A stretch of 64,000 nt of DNA from Lachnospiraceae bacterium (GTDB taxonomy: Bacteria > Bacillota > Clostridia > Lachnospirales > Lachnospiraceae). How positions within the stretch are numbered: the first letter of the stretch is position 1; every line of letters starts with the position of its first letter. Position numbers and translations under genes: made by a program. Below, in pieces: positions 4,694-11,027 of the stretch. The notes under the pieces are model-generated. The model ran no database searches. It was not told where the DNA came from and saw nothing but the letters and a program-made list of their open reading frames with translations. The stretch is taken from positions 7,031-71,030 of the forward strand of contig JAAWBG010000036.1 of the NCBI GenBank assembly GCA_022792535.1. Reading direction: 5' to 3'.

Positions 4694-5896
4694 TTAATAA
4701 TCTGTCATGTGCTGCATTTTGTTTTGCTTTGTCTTCAGATAAAATACATCTGTTTTTTTCGCAGGCATCTGGATCGGCACCCGCTCCTCAATGGAAATGC
4801 CATATCCTGACAATCCTGTAATCTTTTTGGGATTGTTGGTGAGCAGACGCAGTTTTTCCACTCCAAGATCATGTAAAATCTGAGCGCCGATTCCATAATC
4901 CCGCAGATCCGGCGCAAATCCAAGTTCTACATTTGCCTCCACGGTGTCGAATCCCTTTTCCTGTAATTCATAAGCTTTCAATTTATTGATCAAACCAATT
5001 CCACGGCCTTCTTGACGCATGTACAAAAGGATTCCGCGGCCTTCCTCTGCAATGGCTTTCATGGCGGCGTCTAACTGTTCTCCGCAGTCACAGCGGCCAG
5101 AGCCAAATACATCCCCAGTGAGACATTCAGAATGCACCCGGCACAGTACCGGAGCCCCGTCTGCAACATCCCCCATTACCAGGGCAACGTGATGTTCGCC
5201 ATTTAATTTATTGACATATCCATAGATCTCAAATTTTCCATATTTGGTAGGCATTTTTGCATGTGCTTCCTGCTGCACCAGACTTTCTCTATCCATACGG
5301 TAACGGACCAGATCTGCCACTGTGATCACTGTCATCTGAAACTTCTCTGCTAGTTGCAGTAAGGCTTCCGTATGCATGATAGTTCCATCTTCCTGCATAA
5401 TCTCACAGCACAGCCCGCAAGGTTTTAATCCAGCCAAAACTGCAAGATCCACCGTGGCCTCCGTATGTCCGGTACGCTTCAGCACGCCGCCTTCTCTTGC
5501 CTCCAGGGGAAACATATGGCCCGGCTTTCTGAAATCCTCCGGTTTTGCCCCGTCCCGTACTGTGGCCAAGGCTGTCTCAGAACGTTCAAAAGCAGAGATT
5601 CCTGTGTCTGTGTGAATCCCGTCAATAGACACGGTAAATGCGATCTGCTCATTGTCCATGCTTTGTTCCACCATCTGTTTCAGTCCAAGCTGCTGGCATA
5701 ATTCCCTGCCCATAGGCATACAGACCAGACCCTTTCCATGGGTCGCCATAAAATTTATATTTTCCGGCGTGGCAAATTCTGCCCCACAGATAAAATCTCC
5801 CTCGCTCTCCTTATCGGAATCCTCGATCACCATCACGATCTTTCCCTGCCGAACATCTGCAATCGCCTGTTCTACACTGTCAAACTTTTTGCTCAT
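4694..5896 (-). CDS. ribBA: Bifunctional DHBP synthase / GTP cyclohydrolase II
   Basis: GHTEA in the N-domain; [32 protein letters not shown] in the GCH II domain. Start moved to MSKKF (ATG 5896). Confidence 0.93.
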
Positions 5897-5938
5897 TTTC
5901 TTCCCTTCCTCTCTATCCAACAATAAATTTAAGTCCCA

Positions 5939-6589
5939 TCAAAGGAATCCATGCTCTAACAAAAACCCTTCTGTGATCTTGCTGTCTGATTTCTCTTTTT
6001 TCTCGCCAGTCAGAAGCTTCTCCACATATTTTCCAATCATATCACATTCAATATTGATGGCGCTGCCAGATTTTTTATCGCTTAATGCAGTTTCTTTCCG
6101 CGTATGGGGAATCACGGACACCTGAAAATCCTGGCCGGTCACTTTTGCCACCGTAAGGCTGATTCCATCTAATGCGACAGAGCCCTTTTCCACAATATAT
6201 CTGAGCAGTTCTGGTTCTGCCCCAATAGTATACCAGACTGCATTTTCCTCCTGCTGGATTCTGGTAATGGTTCCGGTCCCATCAATATGGCCTGACACAA
6301 TATGACCATGAAACCTTCCGTCTGCCGCCATCGCCCGTTCCAAGTTCACAATTCCAGGAACCTTGATCTCCGATAAGCTGCTGCGGCGCATAGTCTCTGC
6401 CATAACATCTGCCGTAAAACTTTCTTTTCCCAAAGACGTTACCGTAAGGCAGATCCCATTGACTGCAATACTGTCTCCAATCTTGGTGCCCTCTAAAACT
6501 TTCCGGCACTGGATTTTTATCTTCGCAGAAAGAGATTCTCTTTTTATCTCGCAAATCTTTCCCGTTTCCTCTATGATTCCGGTGAACAT
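5939..6589 (-). CDS. ribE: Riboflavin synthase alpha chain
   Basis: MFTGIIEE start at 6589 with GGAGG RBS; GDSIAVNGICLTV, GHIVSGHIDG, KGSVALDGISLTV. The upstream part of track ORF 5939..7240 is a shadow of ribD. Confidence 0.95.
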   Translation of the reverse strand: MFTGIIEETGKICEIKRESLSAKIKIQCRKVLEGTKIGDSIAVNGICLTVTSLGKESFTADVMAETMRRSSLSEIKVPGIVNLERAMAADGRFHGHIVSGHIDGTGTITRIQQEENAVWYTIGAEPELLRYIVEKGSVALDGISLTVAKVTGQDFQVSVIPHTRKETALSDKKSGSAINIECDMIGKYVEKLLTGEKKEKSDSKITEGFLLEHGFL

Positions 6590-7794
6590 GTCTCTCCTCC
6601 AATCCTGCCTGTAATGCACAAATCTTCCCCATATCTGGAAAATTCTGTATGCTGAAGCATCACTGCATCTTTCATCTGCAAAATACCTGTTCCCTCCACT
6701 GGAGATTTGGCCCCTGCTCCTGCCACCAATTTTGGCGCCACAAAAGCATAGACCCGCTGGACCAGTCCCTTGGTTAAAGCAGAGGCATTCAAAGTGCCTC
6801 CTCCCTCCAGAAGAATACTGTCGATTCCCCGTTCTGCCAGCTTCTGTAAAAGTATGGAAAGATCTAACTGTCCCGATCCCTTCTTCCCTTTCTCCATGGG
6901 AATTTCCAATAAGATCACATTCTGTTTTTCCAGCTCTCTTTTCGTTTCCTCCAAAGTCTCTGTCTGTCCCTGACCTGCCGGCTGTTTCCTCCACTCTTCT
7001 GCTGACTTGGGATTCCAGGCCACAATGGTCTCTATCTGATGGGCGGATTTCACAATCTGACTGTCCAGAGGCATCCGCAGTCTGGCGTCGCACAAAATCC
7101 GCACTGGATCCCGGCCATTTTCCATCCGGCAGTTCAACATAGGGTCGTCTGCCAGCACCGTTCCAATTCCAGCCATAATGCCCCGATAGCGGTTGCGCAG
7201 ACATTGGACATAACCTCTGGCCTTGGCCCCGGTTACCCACTTGGAATCGCCGCTTTCACAGGCGATTTTTCCATCTAATGTCATGGCATACTTCATGGCC
7301 ACAAAGGGGAGTTTTTTTTCTATGTAGTAAAAAAATATCTCATTTAAGGCTCTGCATTCTTTCTCTAAAATTCCAGTTTCCACTTCAATTCCATGTTCCC
7401 GCAGAATCTCTATCCCCTTCCCTGCCACTTTAGGATTGGAATCCAAGCACCCTACATAAACTTTTCGAATCTTTTTCTCTATAATAATTTCTGTACAGGG
7501 CGGAGTCTTGCCATAGTGACAGCAAGGCTCTAAATTTACATAAAGTTCTGCTCCTGCTGTATCTTCCGGGCAGTTGAGTAAAGCGTTCCGCTCCGCATGA
7601 AATCCCCCATACTGTTCATGATACCCAGTGGAAATCACTTTTCCCTCTTTTACCACCACGCATCCTACCATGGGATTGGGCGATACTCTTCCCTCTCCGC
7701 GCCTGGCAAGCTGCAGCACCTGGCCCATATAATCTTCCGGCGTCTTTTCCCCCGCCGCATGTTTCTCTGACGTCTCTTTTTCTCTCTGCTGCAT
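6571..7794 (-). CDS. ribD: Bifunctional diaminohydroxyphosphoribosylaminopyrimidine deaminase / reductase
   Basis: NPMVGCV, HAE, LEPCCHYGKTPPC, KYAMTLDGKIA, LLEGGG. Confidence 0.95.
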   Translation of the reverse strand: MQQREKETSEKHAAGEKTPEDYMGQVLQLARRGEGRVSPNPMVGCVVVKEGKVISTGYHEQYGGFHAERNALLNCPEDTAGAELYVNLEPCCHYGKTPPCTEIIIEKKIRKVYVGCLDSNPKVAGKGIEILREHGIEVETGILEKECRALNEIFFYYIEKKLPFVAMKYAMTLDGKIACESGDSKWVTGAKARGYVQCLRNRYRGIMAGIGTVLADDPMLNCRMENGRDPVRILCDARLRMPLDSQIVKSAHQIETIVAWNPKSAEEWRKQPAGQGQTETLEETKRELEKQNVILLEIPMEKGKKGSGQLDLSILLQKLAERGIDSILLEGGGTLNASALTKGLVQRVYAFVAPKLVAGAGAKSPVEGTGILQMKDAVMLQHTEFSRYGEDLCITGRIGGETCSPES

Positions 7795-7826: not shown

Positions 7827-8453
7827 CTACCTTCGGTGAGCGCCCTTCAAAAATGGAGAAAGCGGTTTGTAAATTACAAGAGTGATCAGCACGCTGAAGA
7901 TTCCTTTCATAAAGGTAAAAGGTGTGTTAAATACAATCAGGCATTCCAGCATATTTTTTACCCCTGGAAAGATCATCTGATAAGCTGCCAGTATCGTTTC
8001 TTTCGGCATAAAATTGTAATACACCGGATATACGATCAGATAATTAGAAAAAATACTGATCACTCCCATCAAAAAAGCTCCTGCCACCGCCCCTGCGACA
8101 GCGCTCTTTCTGCTCTTCCATTTCTGGTATACAAGCCCTGCCGGAACCACAAAAGACGCCCCTAAGATAAAATTGGAAAGCTCTCCCACGCCTCCTGTGG
8201 TGGTCATAAACAGATGCAGCAGGTTTTTGATCAGACAGATCAGCGCGCCGCTGACTGGTCCCATCGCAAAAGCTCCCATCAGGGCCGGCAGTTCTGACAG
8301 ATCCATCTTAATAAAGGACGGCATAATCGGCACTGAAAATTCTAAAAACATCAAGACAAATGCAATAGCAGATAACATTGCCGTCATGGTCAGCTTCCAG
8401 ATATCCATCTGCTTTGTCTGTTTTCCCACTGTTGTAGTATTCATTGTACTCAT
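7827..8453 (-). CDS. ribU: ECF transporter S component, riboflavin (RibU-like)
   Basis: AMLSAIAFVLMFLEF..MDLSELPAL..GP motif, highly hydrophobic; first gene behind the FMN riboswitch. Confidence 0.85.
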   Translation of the reverse strand: MSTMNTTTVGKQTKQMDIWKLTMTAMLSAIAFVLMFLEFSVPIMPSFIKMDLSELPALMGAFAMGPVSGALICLIKNLLHLFMTTTGGVGELSNFILGASFVVPAGLVYQKWKSRKSAVAGAVAGAFLMGVISIFSNYLIVYPVYYNFMPKETILAAYQMIFPGVKNMLECLIVFNTPFTFMKGIFSVLITLVIYKPLSPFLKGAHRR

Positions 8454-8520
8454 TGTAAAACACTCCTTTTATGTTTGTATTTTCAAGGCAGAATCGGACA
8501 GGAAAGATTCATCTTCTCCC

Positions 8521-8581
8521 TACGCGCGCGCCGCCGATGCGCCGTGCAATGGCATATTTCCTCTGCATCGGCCTACGCGTA
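8521..8581 (-). repeat. GC-rich structured element in the rib leader, related to the element at 25990-26043
   Basis: TACGCG/CGCGTA and GCCGATGC/GCATCGGC stems enclosing AGAGGAAATA and a TGC-CATT-GCA hairpin. Confidence 0.55.
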
Positions 8582-8584
8582 AGA

Positions 8585-8612
8585 ATGCCCTGAATCCAAA
8601 GATTCAGGGCAT
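8585..8612 (-). terminator. Candidate expression-platform hairpin of the FMN riboswitch
   Basis: Perfect 12-bp stem ATGCCCTGAATC / GATTCAGGGCAT followed only by a short TCTT on the minus strand. Confidence 0.55.
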
Positions 8613-8664
8613 ATCACACACACAAATAATACTTTATCACATACAATCATTCTGTAAAGTACTG

Positions 8665-8810
8665 TTTCTTCTCCCATCCAGACTGTACTGTCGGTTTTGG
8701 ATTCTCACCAAATCAACCTTGCGGCTCACGGACTTGCCCTCATAGGGTATCACCGTCGGTCGGGAATTCTCCTGAATCAATATTCAAAAGTCACCCTGCC
8801 CTGAAGAACA
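8665..8810 (-). ncRNA. FMN riboswitch (RFN element) with a 22-nt insertion in L2
   Basis: Minus strand TCTTCAGGGCAGGGTGA[...]AATTCCCGACCGACGGTGA..AAGTCCGTGAGCCG..GATTTGGTGAGAATCCAAAACCGACAGTACAGTCTGGATGGGAGAAGA, upstream of the rib operon. Confidence 0.93.
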
Positions 8811-8834
8811 CTATTTATTTTTATTTCTGGGTAT

Positions 8835-8863
8835 ATTCTACTCTTCTCTTTCCTATCTGTCAA
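8835..8863 (-). promoter_or_regulatory. Sigma-A promoter of the riboswitch/rib operon
   Basis: TTGACA-17 nt-TAGAAT, about 25 nt upstream of the aptamer. Confidence 0.75.
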
Positions 8864-8885
8864 CAGGCATATTTTGTAAAATGTC

Positions 8886-11027
8886 TTAAAGTTTCATGGT
8901 AAGCTGGATTCGTTTTTTCTGAAGATCCACACTCATGACTTTCACTTCCACTATATCTCCTACGCTGACTGCCTCTAAAGGATGCTTGATATATCGTTCT
9001 GTCATCTGAGAAATATGTACCAATCCGTCTTGATGTACGCCGATATCCACAAAGGCTCCAAAATCAATTACATTTCTCACTGTGCCCTTTAAAACCATTC
9101 CCGGCGTCAGGTCTTTCATCTCTAATACATCGCTGCGCAAAATAGGCTTCGGCATATCTTCTCTGGGATCTCTTGCAGGTTTTTCCAGCTCTTTTACAAT
9201 ATCCTGCAGCGTGATCTCTCCGATTTCCAGCTCTTTTGCCAATTTCTTATAATCCGATATCTTTTTTGAGATTCCTCCTAACTTTCCTTCCCGAATCTCT
9301 TCTGGCTGATAGCCCAGCTTGTCCAATAATTTTAAGGTTGCCTCATAGCTTTCCGGATGCACGCTGGTTCCATCCAGCGGATTCTCCCCATCCATAATCC
9401 GCATAAATCCTGCGCACTGTTCGTAGGCTTTCGGCCCTAATTTGGCCACCTTCAAAAGCTGTGCACGGGTGAGGAATCTTCCATTTGCTTCCCGATAGGC
9501 TACAATATTTTTCGCTATGTTTTTTGTAATGCCTGAAATGTATTCTAACAGAGAAGCCGAAGCTGTATTCAGGTCTACTCCTACTTTATTCACGCAGTCC
9601 TCCACCACGCCGCCTAAGGCGTCGCTTAATTTCTTTTGATTCATATCATGCTGGTACTGTCCCACCCCGATGGATTTGGGATCAATTTTTACCAGCTCTG
9701 CCAGAGGATCCTGGAGTCTTCTTGCAATGGAGGCCGCGCTTCTCTGCCCCACATCAAAATTAGGAAACTCTTCTGTGGCCAGTTTGCTGGCGGAATATAC
9801 AGAAGCTCCGGCCTCATTTACAATCACATACTGCACCGGAACTGAAATCTCTTTCAGCAAATCCACAATGATCATTTCTGATTCTCTGGAAGCTGTTCCA
9901 TTTCCCACAGAGATCAGGGATACGTTGTATTTTTGAATTAGTTTCTTTAACACTGCCTTAGATTCTTCTACTTTATTTTGAGGAGCTGTGGGATAAATCA
10001 CTGTGGTATCCAGCACTTTTCCAGTGGAATCCACCACCGCCAGCTTACATCCTGTACGAAACGCCGGGTCCCAGCCCAATACTACCTTGCCGGCAATGGG
10101 CGGCTGCATCAAAAGCTGCTCCAAATTCTTGCCAAACACACGGATAGCTCCATCCTGGGCACGTTCTGTCAGCTCATTGCGGATCTCCCGTTCAATAGCC
10201 GGGGCAATCAGACGTTTATAGCTGTCTTCCACCACAGATTTTAAGACAGCTGTGGTATGGGGATTTTCTCTGGAAATAGTTTTCTTTTCCAGATACTGGA
10301 GAATCTGTTCTGTGGGCGCTTCCATCTTCACGGTCAGAATCTTCTCCTCTTCTCCACGGTTTAATGCCAGAATCCGATGTCCAGCCAGTTTTGCCAAGAC
10401 TTCCTCAAATTCATAATACATCTCATAGACAGATTCTTTTTCTGGATCTTTGGCTGTTGAGGTGATTTTTCCTGCCCTCATAGTCTGTTCTCTGATGTAT
10501 GTTCGATAATCTGCCTCATCGGAAATACTTTCTGCCAGAATATCCATAGCTCCCGCAATGGCGTCTTCCACAGAATCCACGCCTTTTTCCGAATCCAAAA
10601 ATGTTTCTGCTTCTATCTCCAAAGGCTTCTCTGTCATCTGCAGCAAGATAATATTTGCCAGAGGTTCCAATCCTTTTTCCTTTGCAATGGTGGCTCTGGT
10701 CCTTCGCTTGGGACGATAAGGCCGATAAAGGTCTTCCACCGCTACCAAAGTCTCTGCCGACAAGATCTGCTGTTTCAACTCTTCTGTCAGTTTTCCCTGT
10801 TCCTCAATACTAGACAGCACCTGTTCCTTTTTCTCTTCCAAATTCCGCAGATAGAGCAGACGTTCATGCAGATCCCGCAATACTTCGTCATTCAAAGCTC
10901 CTGTGGCTTCCTTCCGATATCTGGAAATAAAGGGAATCGTATTGCCTTCATCAATCAGTTTTACCGCTGCCTCTGCCTGTTGTTTTCGAATCTTCAGTTC
11001 TTCCGCTAATTTTGCAATAATATCCAT
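8886..11027 (-). CDS. tex: Tex (YhgF) RNA-binding transcriptional accessory protein with S1 domain
   Basis: GNTIPFISRYRKEATG, DPAFRTGCK, IGVGQYQHD, C-terminal S1 GTVRNVIDFGAFVDIGVHQDGLVHIS. Confidence 0.93.
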   Translation of the reverse strand: MDIIAKLAEELKIRKQQAEAAVKLIDEGNTIPFISRYRKEATGALNDEVLRDLHERLLYLRNLEEKKEQVLSSIEEQGKLTEELKQQILSAETLVAVEDLYRPYRPKRRTRATIAKEKGLEPLANIILLQMTEKPLEIEAETFLDSEKGVDSVEDAIAGAMDILAESISDEADYRTYIREQTMRAGKITSTAKDPEKESVYEMYYEFEEVLAKLAGHRILALNRGEEEKILTVKMEAPTEQILQYLEKKTISRENPHTTAVLKSVVEDSYKRLIAPAIEREIRNELTERAQDGAIRVFGKNLEQLLMQPPIAGKVVLGWDPAFRTGCKLAVVDSTGKVLDTTVIYPTAPQNKVEESKAVLKKLIQKYNVSLISVGNGTASRESEMIIVDLLKEISVPVQYVIVNEAGASVYSASKLATEEFPNFDVGQRSAASIARRLQDPLAELVKIDPKSIGVGQYQHDMNQKKLSDALGGVVEDCVNKVGVDLNTASASLLEYISGITKNIAKNIVAYREANGRFLTRAQLLKVAKLGPKAYEQCAGFMRIMDGENPLDGTSVHPESYEATLKLLDKLGYQPEEIREGKLGGISKKISDYKKLAKELEIGEITLQDIVKELEKPARDPREDMPKPILRSDVLEMKDLTPGMVLKGTVRNVIDFGAFVDIGVHQDGLVHISQMTERYIKHPLEAVSVGDIVEVKVMSVDLQKKRIQLTMKL

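Follow-up and report, generated by a model that had tools for sequence, protein, structure and literature searches.

A hairpin that splits loop L2 of a Lachnospiraceae FMN riboswitch as a probable tolerated peripheral helix

The FMN riboswitch that precedes the riboflavin genes of a Lachnospiraceae bacterium (assembly GCA_022792535.1) carries a hairpin in the middle of its loop L2, which raises the question of whether this hairpin alters the switch, serves it, or is simply accommodated by it. T-loops of the FMN riboswitch are formed by the loops capping helices P2, P3, and P5, and the AdoCbl riboswitch has one in its P6-P7 bulge; in the FMN T-loops an optional base-paired helix interrupts the GNR triloop, and "variable insertions" are tolerated by riboswitches at specific sites, such matches scoring low (Barrick and Breaker, Genome Biol 2007, PMC2258182). 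L2 and L5 are described as 7-nt loops, in which the first five nucleotides, YGNRA, form the T-loop and the last two are a UU bulge; the receptors of these T-loops are L6 and L3, a receptor base intercalates between T-loop positions 4 and 5, and position 3 is a sequence-flexible apex (bioRxiv 10.1101/2022.12.26.521914). According to the same later survey, the loops bearing FMN T-loops are "always seven nucleotides", suggesting that the split-L2 variant is under-recognised and easily overlooked. We conclude that the hairpin, termed P2a, is very probably an optional, tolerated peripheral helix that emerges from the apex of the L2 T-loop on an otherwise canonical FMN riboswitch.

The aptamer and its split loop

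The window, i.e., the whole stretch of 64,000 nucleotides that was analyzed, contains one Rfam match, the FMN riboswitch aptamer (RF00050) with helices P1 to P6 at 8662..8812 on the minus strand, and the same match is the sole FMN match in the genome. The cmscan alignment of window positions 8812..8662 (minus strand) to model positions 1-138 scores 96.6 bits versus a gathering score of 66.2 (E 4.6e-21). In this alignment, the aptamer matches all upper-case consensus positions, including the conserved junction positions of the ligand pocket, and its P2 loop has 26 nt versus 4 in the Rfam model. The L6 receptor has the standard form, UACAGU, and P2 is followed by AC. Helices P1 to P6, together with the extra hairpin, are reproduced by the minimum-energy fold of the window leader. 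FMN riboswitch variants with altered ligand specificity, reportedly described by the Breaker laboratory in 2019, are said to have changes at ligand-contacting core nucleotides; in the cmscan alignment, none of the core changes expected of such variants occur at the conserved junction positions of the window aptamer, and the sole difference is the peripheral L2 hairpin. Positions 8400-8900 were also searched against Rfam at permissive settings; this returned two other candidates, FourU on the insert (20 bits versus 60, E 0.18) and BTnc201 (E 0.66), which were both rejected as chance-level matches.

Helix P2 and the split T-loop occupy positions 8762..8796 of the minus strand, with the P2 strands GGG at 8796-8794 and CCC at 8764-8762. 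Reading of the sequence assigns UGA at 8793-8791 to T-loop positions 1-3, and AAUU at 8768-8765 to positions 4-5 and the two bulged U residues. The 22-nt hairpin P2a, CUUUUGAAUAUUGAUUCAGGAG, lies at 8769..8790 (minus strand) between T-loop positions 3 and 4; it comprises nine pairs (C-G, U-A, U-G, U-G, U-A, G-C, A-U, A-U, U-A) and the loop AUUG. Its predicted energy is -5.9 kcal/mol (z = -3.48), and two of 200 shuffled sequences fold equally well. These data agree exactly, on the minus strand, with an earlier note on this DNA, which had described a 22-nt hairpin of 9 bp with two G-U pairs and a 4-nt loop splitting L2 and had stated that its removal restores the consensus; excision of P2a indeed yields the 7-nt consensus loop UGAAAUU. 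The sequence signatures of the T-loop and its receptor are both recognizable, U-G-A|A-A-U-U split by the hairpin and UACAGU in L6. The note's phrase "tolerated extrusion" also stands, since both halves of the L2 T-loop are intact and all other conserved positions match the family consensus. We know of no solved structure of an FMN riboswitch with a split L2.

The aptamer and the insert are identical in two independent Logan assemblies of other sequencing runs, SRR26686525 and SRR36216097, which are the two contigs that reach far enough upstream among those found via the exact RibU protein. The leader of SRR36216097 differs from that of the window at two places, a single base in the tail of the terminator and, further downstream, a deletion of 3 nt, and therefore represents a separate strain. 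The identity of the insert in two independent assemblies excludes an assembly error, an eventuality raised by the earlier note that is also contradicted by the presence of such inserts throughout the genus (see below). The exact 35-mer spanning P2 and the insert had no match in the JGI metagenome contigs. The Rfam FMN model does not provide an insert state in L2, and Infernal spans the insert of the window by a local end.

Expression platform and regulated genes

The upstream gene tex (ORF 8886..11027) ends just before a sigma-70-type promoter, TTGACA-17 nt-TAGAAT, at 8835..8863 of the minus strand, which matches the consensus at 11 of 12 positions. On the 5' side of the aptamer, the end of P1 and J1/2 form the antiterminator strand UUCAGGGCA (8797..8805, minus strand), which is complementary to the 5' arm of the terminator. 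The terminator element occupies 8576..8612 (minus strand) and consists of a 12-bp hairpin, AUGCCCUGAAUC-UUUG-GAUUCAGGGCAU at 8612-8585, followed by the weak U-tract UCUUACGCG at 8584-8576. The predicted energies are -16.1 kcal/mol for the duplex of UUCAGGGCA with the terminator 5' arm and -20.1 kcal/mol for the terminator duplex. In silico, a transcript cut before the terminator 3' arm folds into the UUCAGGGCA antiterminator pairing, whereas the minimum-energy fold of the full transcript contains P1, the aptamer, and the terminator; P2a is closed in both folds. In the proposed mechanism, bound FMN would lock P1 and J1/2 in the aptamer, so that the hairpin GCCCUGAAUC/GAUUCAGGGC would terminate transcription before ribU-ribD-ribE-ribBA; with FMN absent, UUCAGGGCA of the aptamer 5' side would pair with the terminator 5' arm and allow readthrough. 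The predicted folds thus describe a leader with the standard layout of an FMN OFF switch that is apparently working.

A simple terminator scan made no call at the terminator of the window, because the window strain has only UCUU in the tail; the hairpin with a proper U-run is kept in 31 members of the genus. Position 8583 (minus strand) is polymorphic, the tail reading UCUUA in the window and SRR26686525 and UUUUUA, with T for C, in SRR36216097, so that the window allele is the weaker U-tract of the two. The weak tail of the window strain, UCUUA, counts against reading the locus as a usual switch.

The first gene of the operon, ribU (7827..8453, minus strand), encodes a substrate-specific component of an ECF transporter of the riboflavin importer type (PF12822, E 5.4e-33); its start codon is 209 nt past the aptamer, and its ribosome-binding site, AAGGAG, is at 8468-8463. 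After a gap of 32 nt, the riboflavin synthesis genes follow at 4694..7794 on the same strand: ribD at 7794-6571 (RibD_C and deaminase domains), the riboflavin synthase gene ribE inside an ORF call at 7240-5939 (two Lum_binding domains), and ribBA at 5923-4694 (DHBP_synthase and GTP_cyclohydro2 domains). By its predicted products, the ribU-ribD-ribE-ribBA context downstream of the switch is canonical. The suggestion in the earlier note that the insertion might alter the ligand range or disable the switch finds no support at this locus, the core, L6, the terminator/antiterminator platform, and the riboflavin genes being all canonical.

Two further features were observed in the leader downstream of the terminator. 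A G+C-rich self-complementary block at about 8500-8580 (minus strand), GCCGAUGC...GCAUCGGC flanked by ACGCG...CGCGCGCGU, separates the terminator from the ribosome-binding site of ribU, the remaining leader being A+U-rich; this block is without an Rfam match. Genome G029 of the same genus has a similar G+C-rich block, several other members have short GC palindromes there (e.g., TGCGCACGCGTGCGA), and the 3-nt deletion of the SRR36216097 strain falls inside the block. Just upstream of the ribosome-binding site, at about 8478-8497 (minus strand), GAUUCUGCCUUGAAAAUAC is complementary to the P1 5' strand and J1/2 and pairs with them in the minimum-energy fold of the full leader; GAUUCUGAAGACAC is found at the same place in genomes G013 and G027. 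The GAUUCUGCCUUGAAAAUAC pairing may represent a second, long-range alternative pairing.

Distribution of L2 inserts within and beyond the genus

FMN matches were found in 35 of 36 genomes of the same genus. The full-length matches are about 141-177 nt long and score about 70-98 bits, whereas those of neighbouring families are 113-141 nt long (all but one) and score 105-125 bits; the genus matches are unusually long and lower-scoring because their ribU-type aptamers carry the L2 hairpin, for which the Rfam model has no insert state. In each of the 33 ribU-linked aptamers that were read in the genus, the hairpin occupies exactly the same place, with a length of 10-193 nt; the closing pair is C-G in every one of the 33, the stem sequences differ, and the shortest inserts (e.g., 10 nt of U and A only) have no stable predicted hairpin. 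Lengths and sequences that vary this freely are consistent with a weakly constrained peripheral element. The longest insert, 193 nt in genome G023 (L042:117-330), includes 2.8 tandem copies of a 47-nt unit (91% matches), indicating that the L2 position was expanded there by tandem duplication. With long inserts (at least 50 nt), Infernal drops the 5' part of the aptamer, and the matches start at model position 14-17 or score 68-73 bits; since the model lacks an insert state in L2, riboswitches with long inserts score near the gathering score of 66.2 and may be missed in annotation.

In four genomes (G014, G017, G032, and G034), the insert-type riboswitch is followed about 800 nt downstream by another whose L2 is of the canonical 7-nt form. 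In G014 (L018:566-1626), the one in which the identities of the downstream genes were checked, the order is insert-type riboswitch, ribU, canonical-L2 riboswitch (126 nt), and ribD. The coexistence of an insert-type (ribU) and a canonical (ribD) riboswitch in G014 speaks in favour of a tolerated helix. In the genome of the window, the second riboswitch is lost, and one riboswitch heads the whole operon.

Beyond the genus, a search through 185,579 species, each represented by one genome, with the pattern GGGCRGGGYG, 8-38 nt, TYCCYNAYCGRYGGT identified at least 120 stretches from many phyla that match the split-L2 layout. Among the matches listed, which comprise 80 loci, nearly all have the form Y-G-N [hairpin] N-A-U-Y inside an FMN aptamer. 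The entry point of the helix, after N and before R at T-loop positions 3 and 4, is shared by these loci and the 33 aptamers read in the genus. The record titles among the matches listed include Anaerolineae and other Chloroflexota, Alicyclobacillus, Roseburia, Blautia, Pseudobutyrivibrio, Lachnobacterium, Lentisphaerae, Kiritimatiellia, Verrucomicrobia, Acidobacteriota, Atribacteria, Spirochaetaceae, Bacteroidales, Ignatzschineria, and Wohlfahrtiimonas. Three of the loci from this many-phyla set were re-scored with the Rfam model, and all of them pass, at 97-103 bits. In the 80 loci among the matches listed, stem pairs 1-5 are paired in 84-94% of cases versus 40-53% with shuffled partners, and none of 500 shuffles reaches the observed values; pairing so far above the shuffles argues that the P2a helix is real and evolves by compensatory change. 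L6 is the 6-nt UANAGU in all 62 parsable aptamers out of 113 that bear an insert.

To obtain proportions, canonical and insert-bearing loops were counted together with a single pattern allowing a gap of 2-32 nt. Inserts of at least 8 nt were found in 11 of 85 matches in a family sample (151 genomes, each representing one genus), in 28 of 147 matches in a sample of the own phylum (401 genomes), and in 32 of 84 matches in a sample of Chloroflexota, the phylum of the Anaerolinea record (201 genomes); the proportions are rough, as they cover exactly matching flanks and inserts of up to 29 nt. By this rough count, the L2 insert appears to be a common variant in the sampled groups. The view of the earlier note that the length of L2 is normally fixed applies to the majority of aptamers and fails for the 33 aptamers read in the genus and for the insert-bearing share of each of the three samples. 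Insertions are common in the pattern-matched samples, which is in effect the result that the note itself had named as speaking against its reading.

The role of the helix and its closest relatives

With both the T-loop nucleotides that flank P2a (U-G-A, A-A, and the two bulged U residues) and the receptor L6 (UACAGU) preserved, L2 would be expected still to dock on L6, P2a pointing into solvent. We infer that docking of L2 on L6 and binding of FMN are unaffected by P2a, and that the helix plays little or no regulatory role. Alternatively, P2a could be functional and kept by selection, tuning the folding kinetics, the L2-L6 docking, or the FMN affinity of transporter-linked switches. None of the 33 aptamers read in the genus lacks the helix, and its closing pair is invariably C-G, so that the helix could be needed rather than merely tolerated; in the four tandem-riboswitch genomes, it is present on the ribU-linked copy and absent from the ribD-linked copy (with the genes checked in G014 only), and helices of this type recur across many phyla. 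However, the length of 10-193 nt and the freely varying sequence, together with the lack of a stable predicted hairpin in the shortest versions and of any conserved loop or stem sequence able to make contact, make a selected function of the helix unlikely.

A more elaborate model starts from the likeness of the insert to the terminator. P2a of the window would mimic its own terminator through an 8-bp complement to the 5' arm and could serve as a back-up antiterminator, and L2 helices in general may delay or gate L2-L6 docking and thereby tune the kinetic window of transporter-linked switches; we regard this as a quite improbable speculation.

In a narrower form, the insert of the window would itself join the switching, its 3' strand GAUUCAGG forming a second antiterminator with CCUGAAUC of the terminator 5' arm, or would have been copied from the terminator hairpin. 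The duplex of the insert with the terminator 5' arm has a predicted energy of -11.7 kcal/mol versus a mean of -4.1 for shuffled inserts, none of 400 shuffles being as good, and the insert is similar to a shorter version of the hairpin at 8585-8612 (UGAAU..AUUCAGG in both). However, 21 further members of the genus whose inserts measure 16-70 nt all lack this complementarity (p 0.095-0.96), the pairing in the window is borderline after correction for 22 tests, the canonical antiterminator has the more favourable energy, and neither of the predicted states opens P2a, so that we consider participation in switching, or descent from the terminator hairpin, very unlikely. As a general role of the helix, insert-terminator complementarity was rejected, being seen in one of 22 genomes tested. 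We put the likeness in the window down either to chance or to the origin of the insert. Finally, that the insertion disables the switch or is an assembly artefact is hardly credible: the Rfam model has to bridge L2 by a local end and the U-tract of the window strain is weak, but the insert is identical in two independent assemblies, is found genus-wide and in many phyla, and accompanies a conserved core, L6, and terminator.

The reading of P2a as a tolerated peripheral helix has mainly practical value and carries little weight as a discovery. For annotators and modellers, it means that a helix is present at this place in about one in eight to one in three of the pattern-matched FMN riboswitches of the sampled groups, and that, as judged from their sequences, the hairpin is not rare and does not signal altered function. 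Genomes of the genus that hold both an insert-type riboswitch and a canonical one provide natural pairs, which would suit a clean test of the role of the helix.

Among known systems, the window riboswitch is like the Fusobacterium nucleatum impX FMN riboswitch (RF00050 reference, PDB 3F2Q) in having the six-helix junction and the conserved junction nucleotides, and it shares with the FMN riboswitch or RFN element in general the predicted L2-L6 and L3-L5 pairs of T-loop and receptor, the terminator/antiterminator platform, and the riboflavin genes downstream. The two differ in L2, which is a terminal 7-nt loop, UGAAAUU, in 3F2Q, whereas that of the window is split by the 9-bp hairpin after the third loop nucleotide. 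The internal T-loop of the AdoCbl riboswitch between P6 and P7 has the same T-loop signature in a bulge between two helices, with the helix continuing (PMC2258182); however, it belongs to another class with another ligand, and its continuing helix is constitutive, whereas that of the FMN switch is optional. The closest relative of P2a is the optional GNR helix of Barrick and Breaker (PMC2258182), which is the same helix as in the window, on the P2 T-loop and between N and R. P2a is thus of a helix type already known since 2007 and is not new; there is no difference in kind, and what is added here are its frequencies, its range of 10-193 nt within one genus, and the covariation counts.
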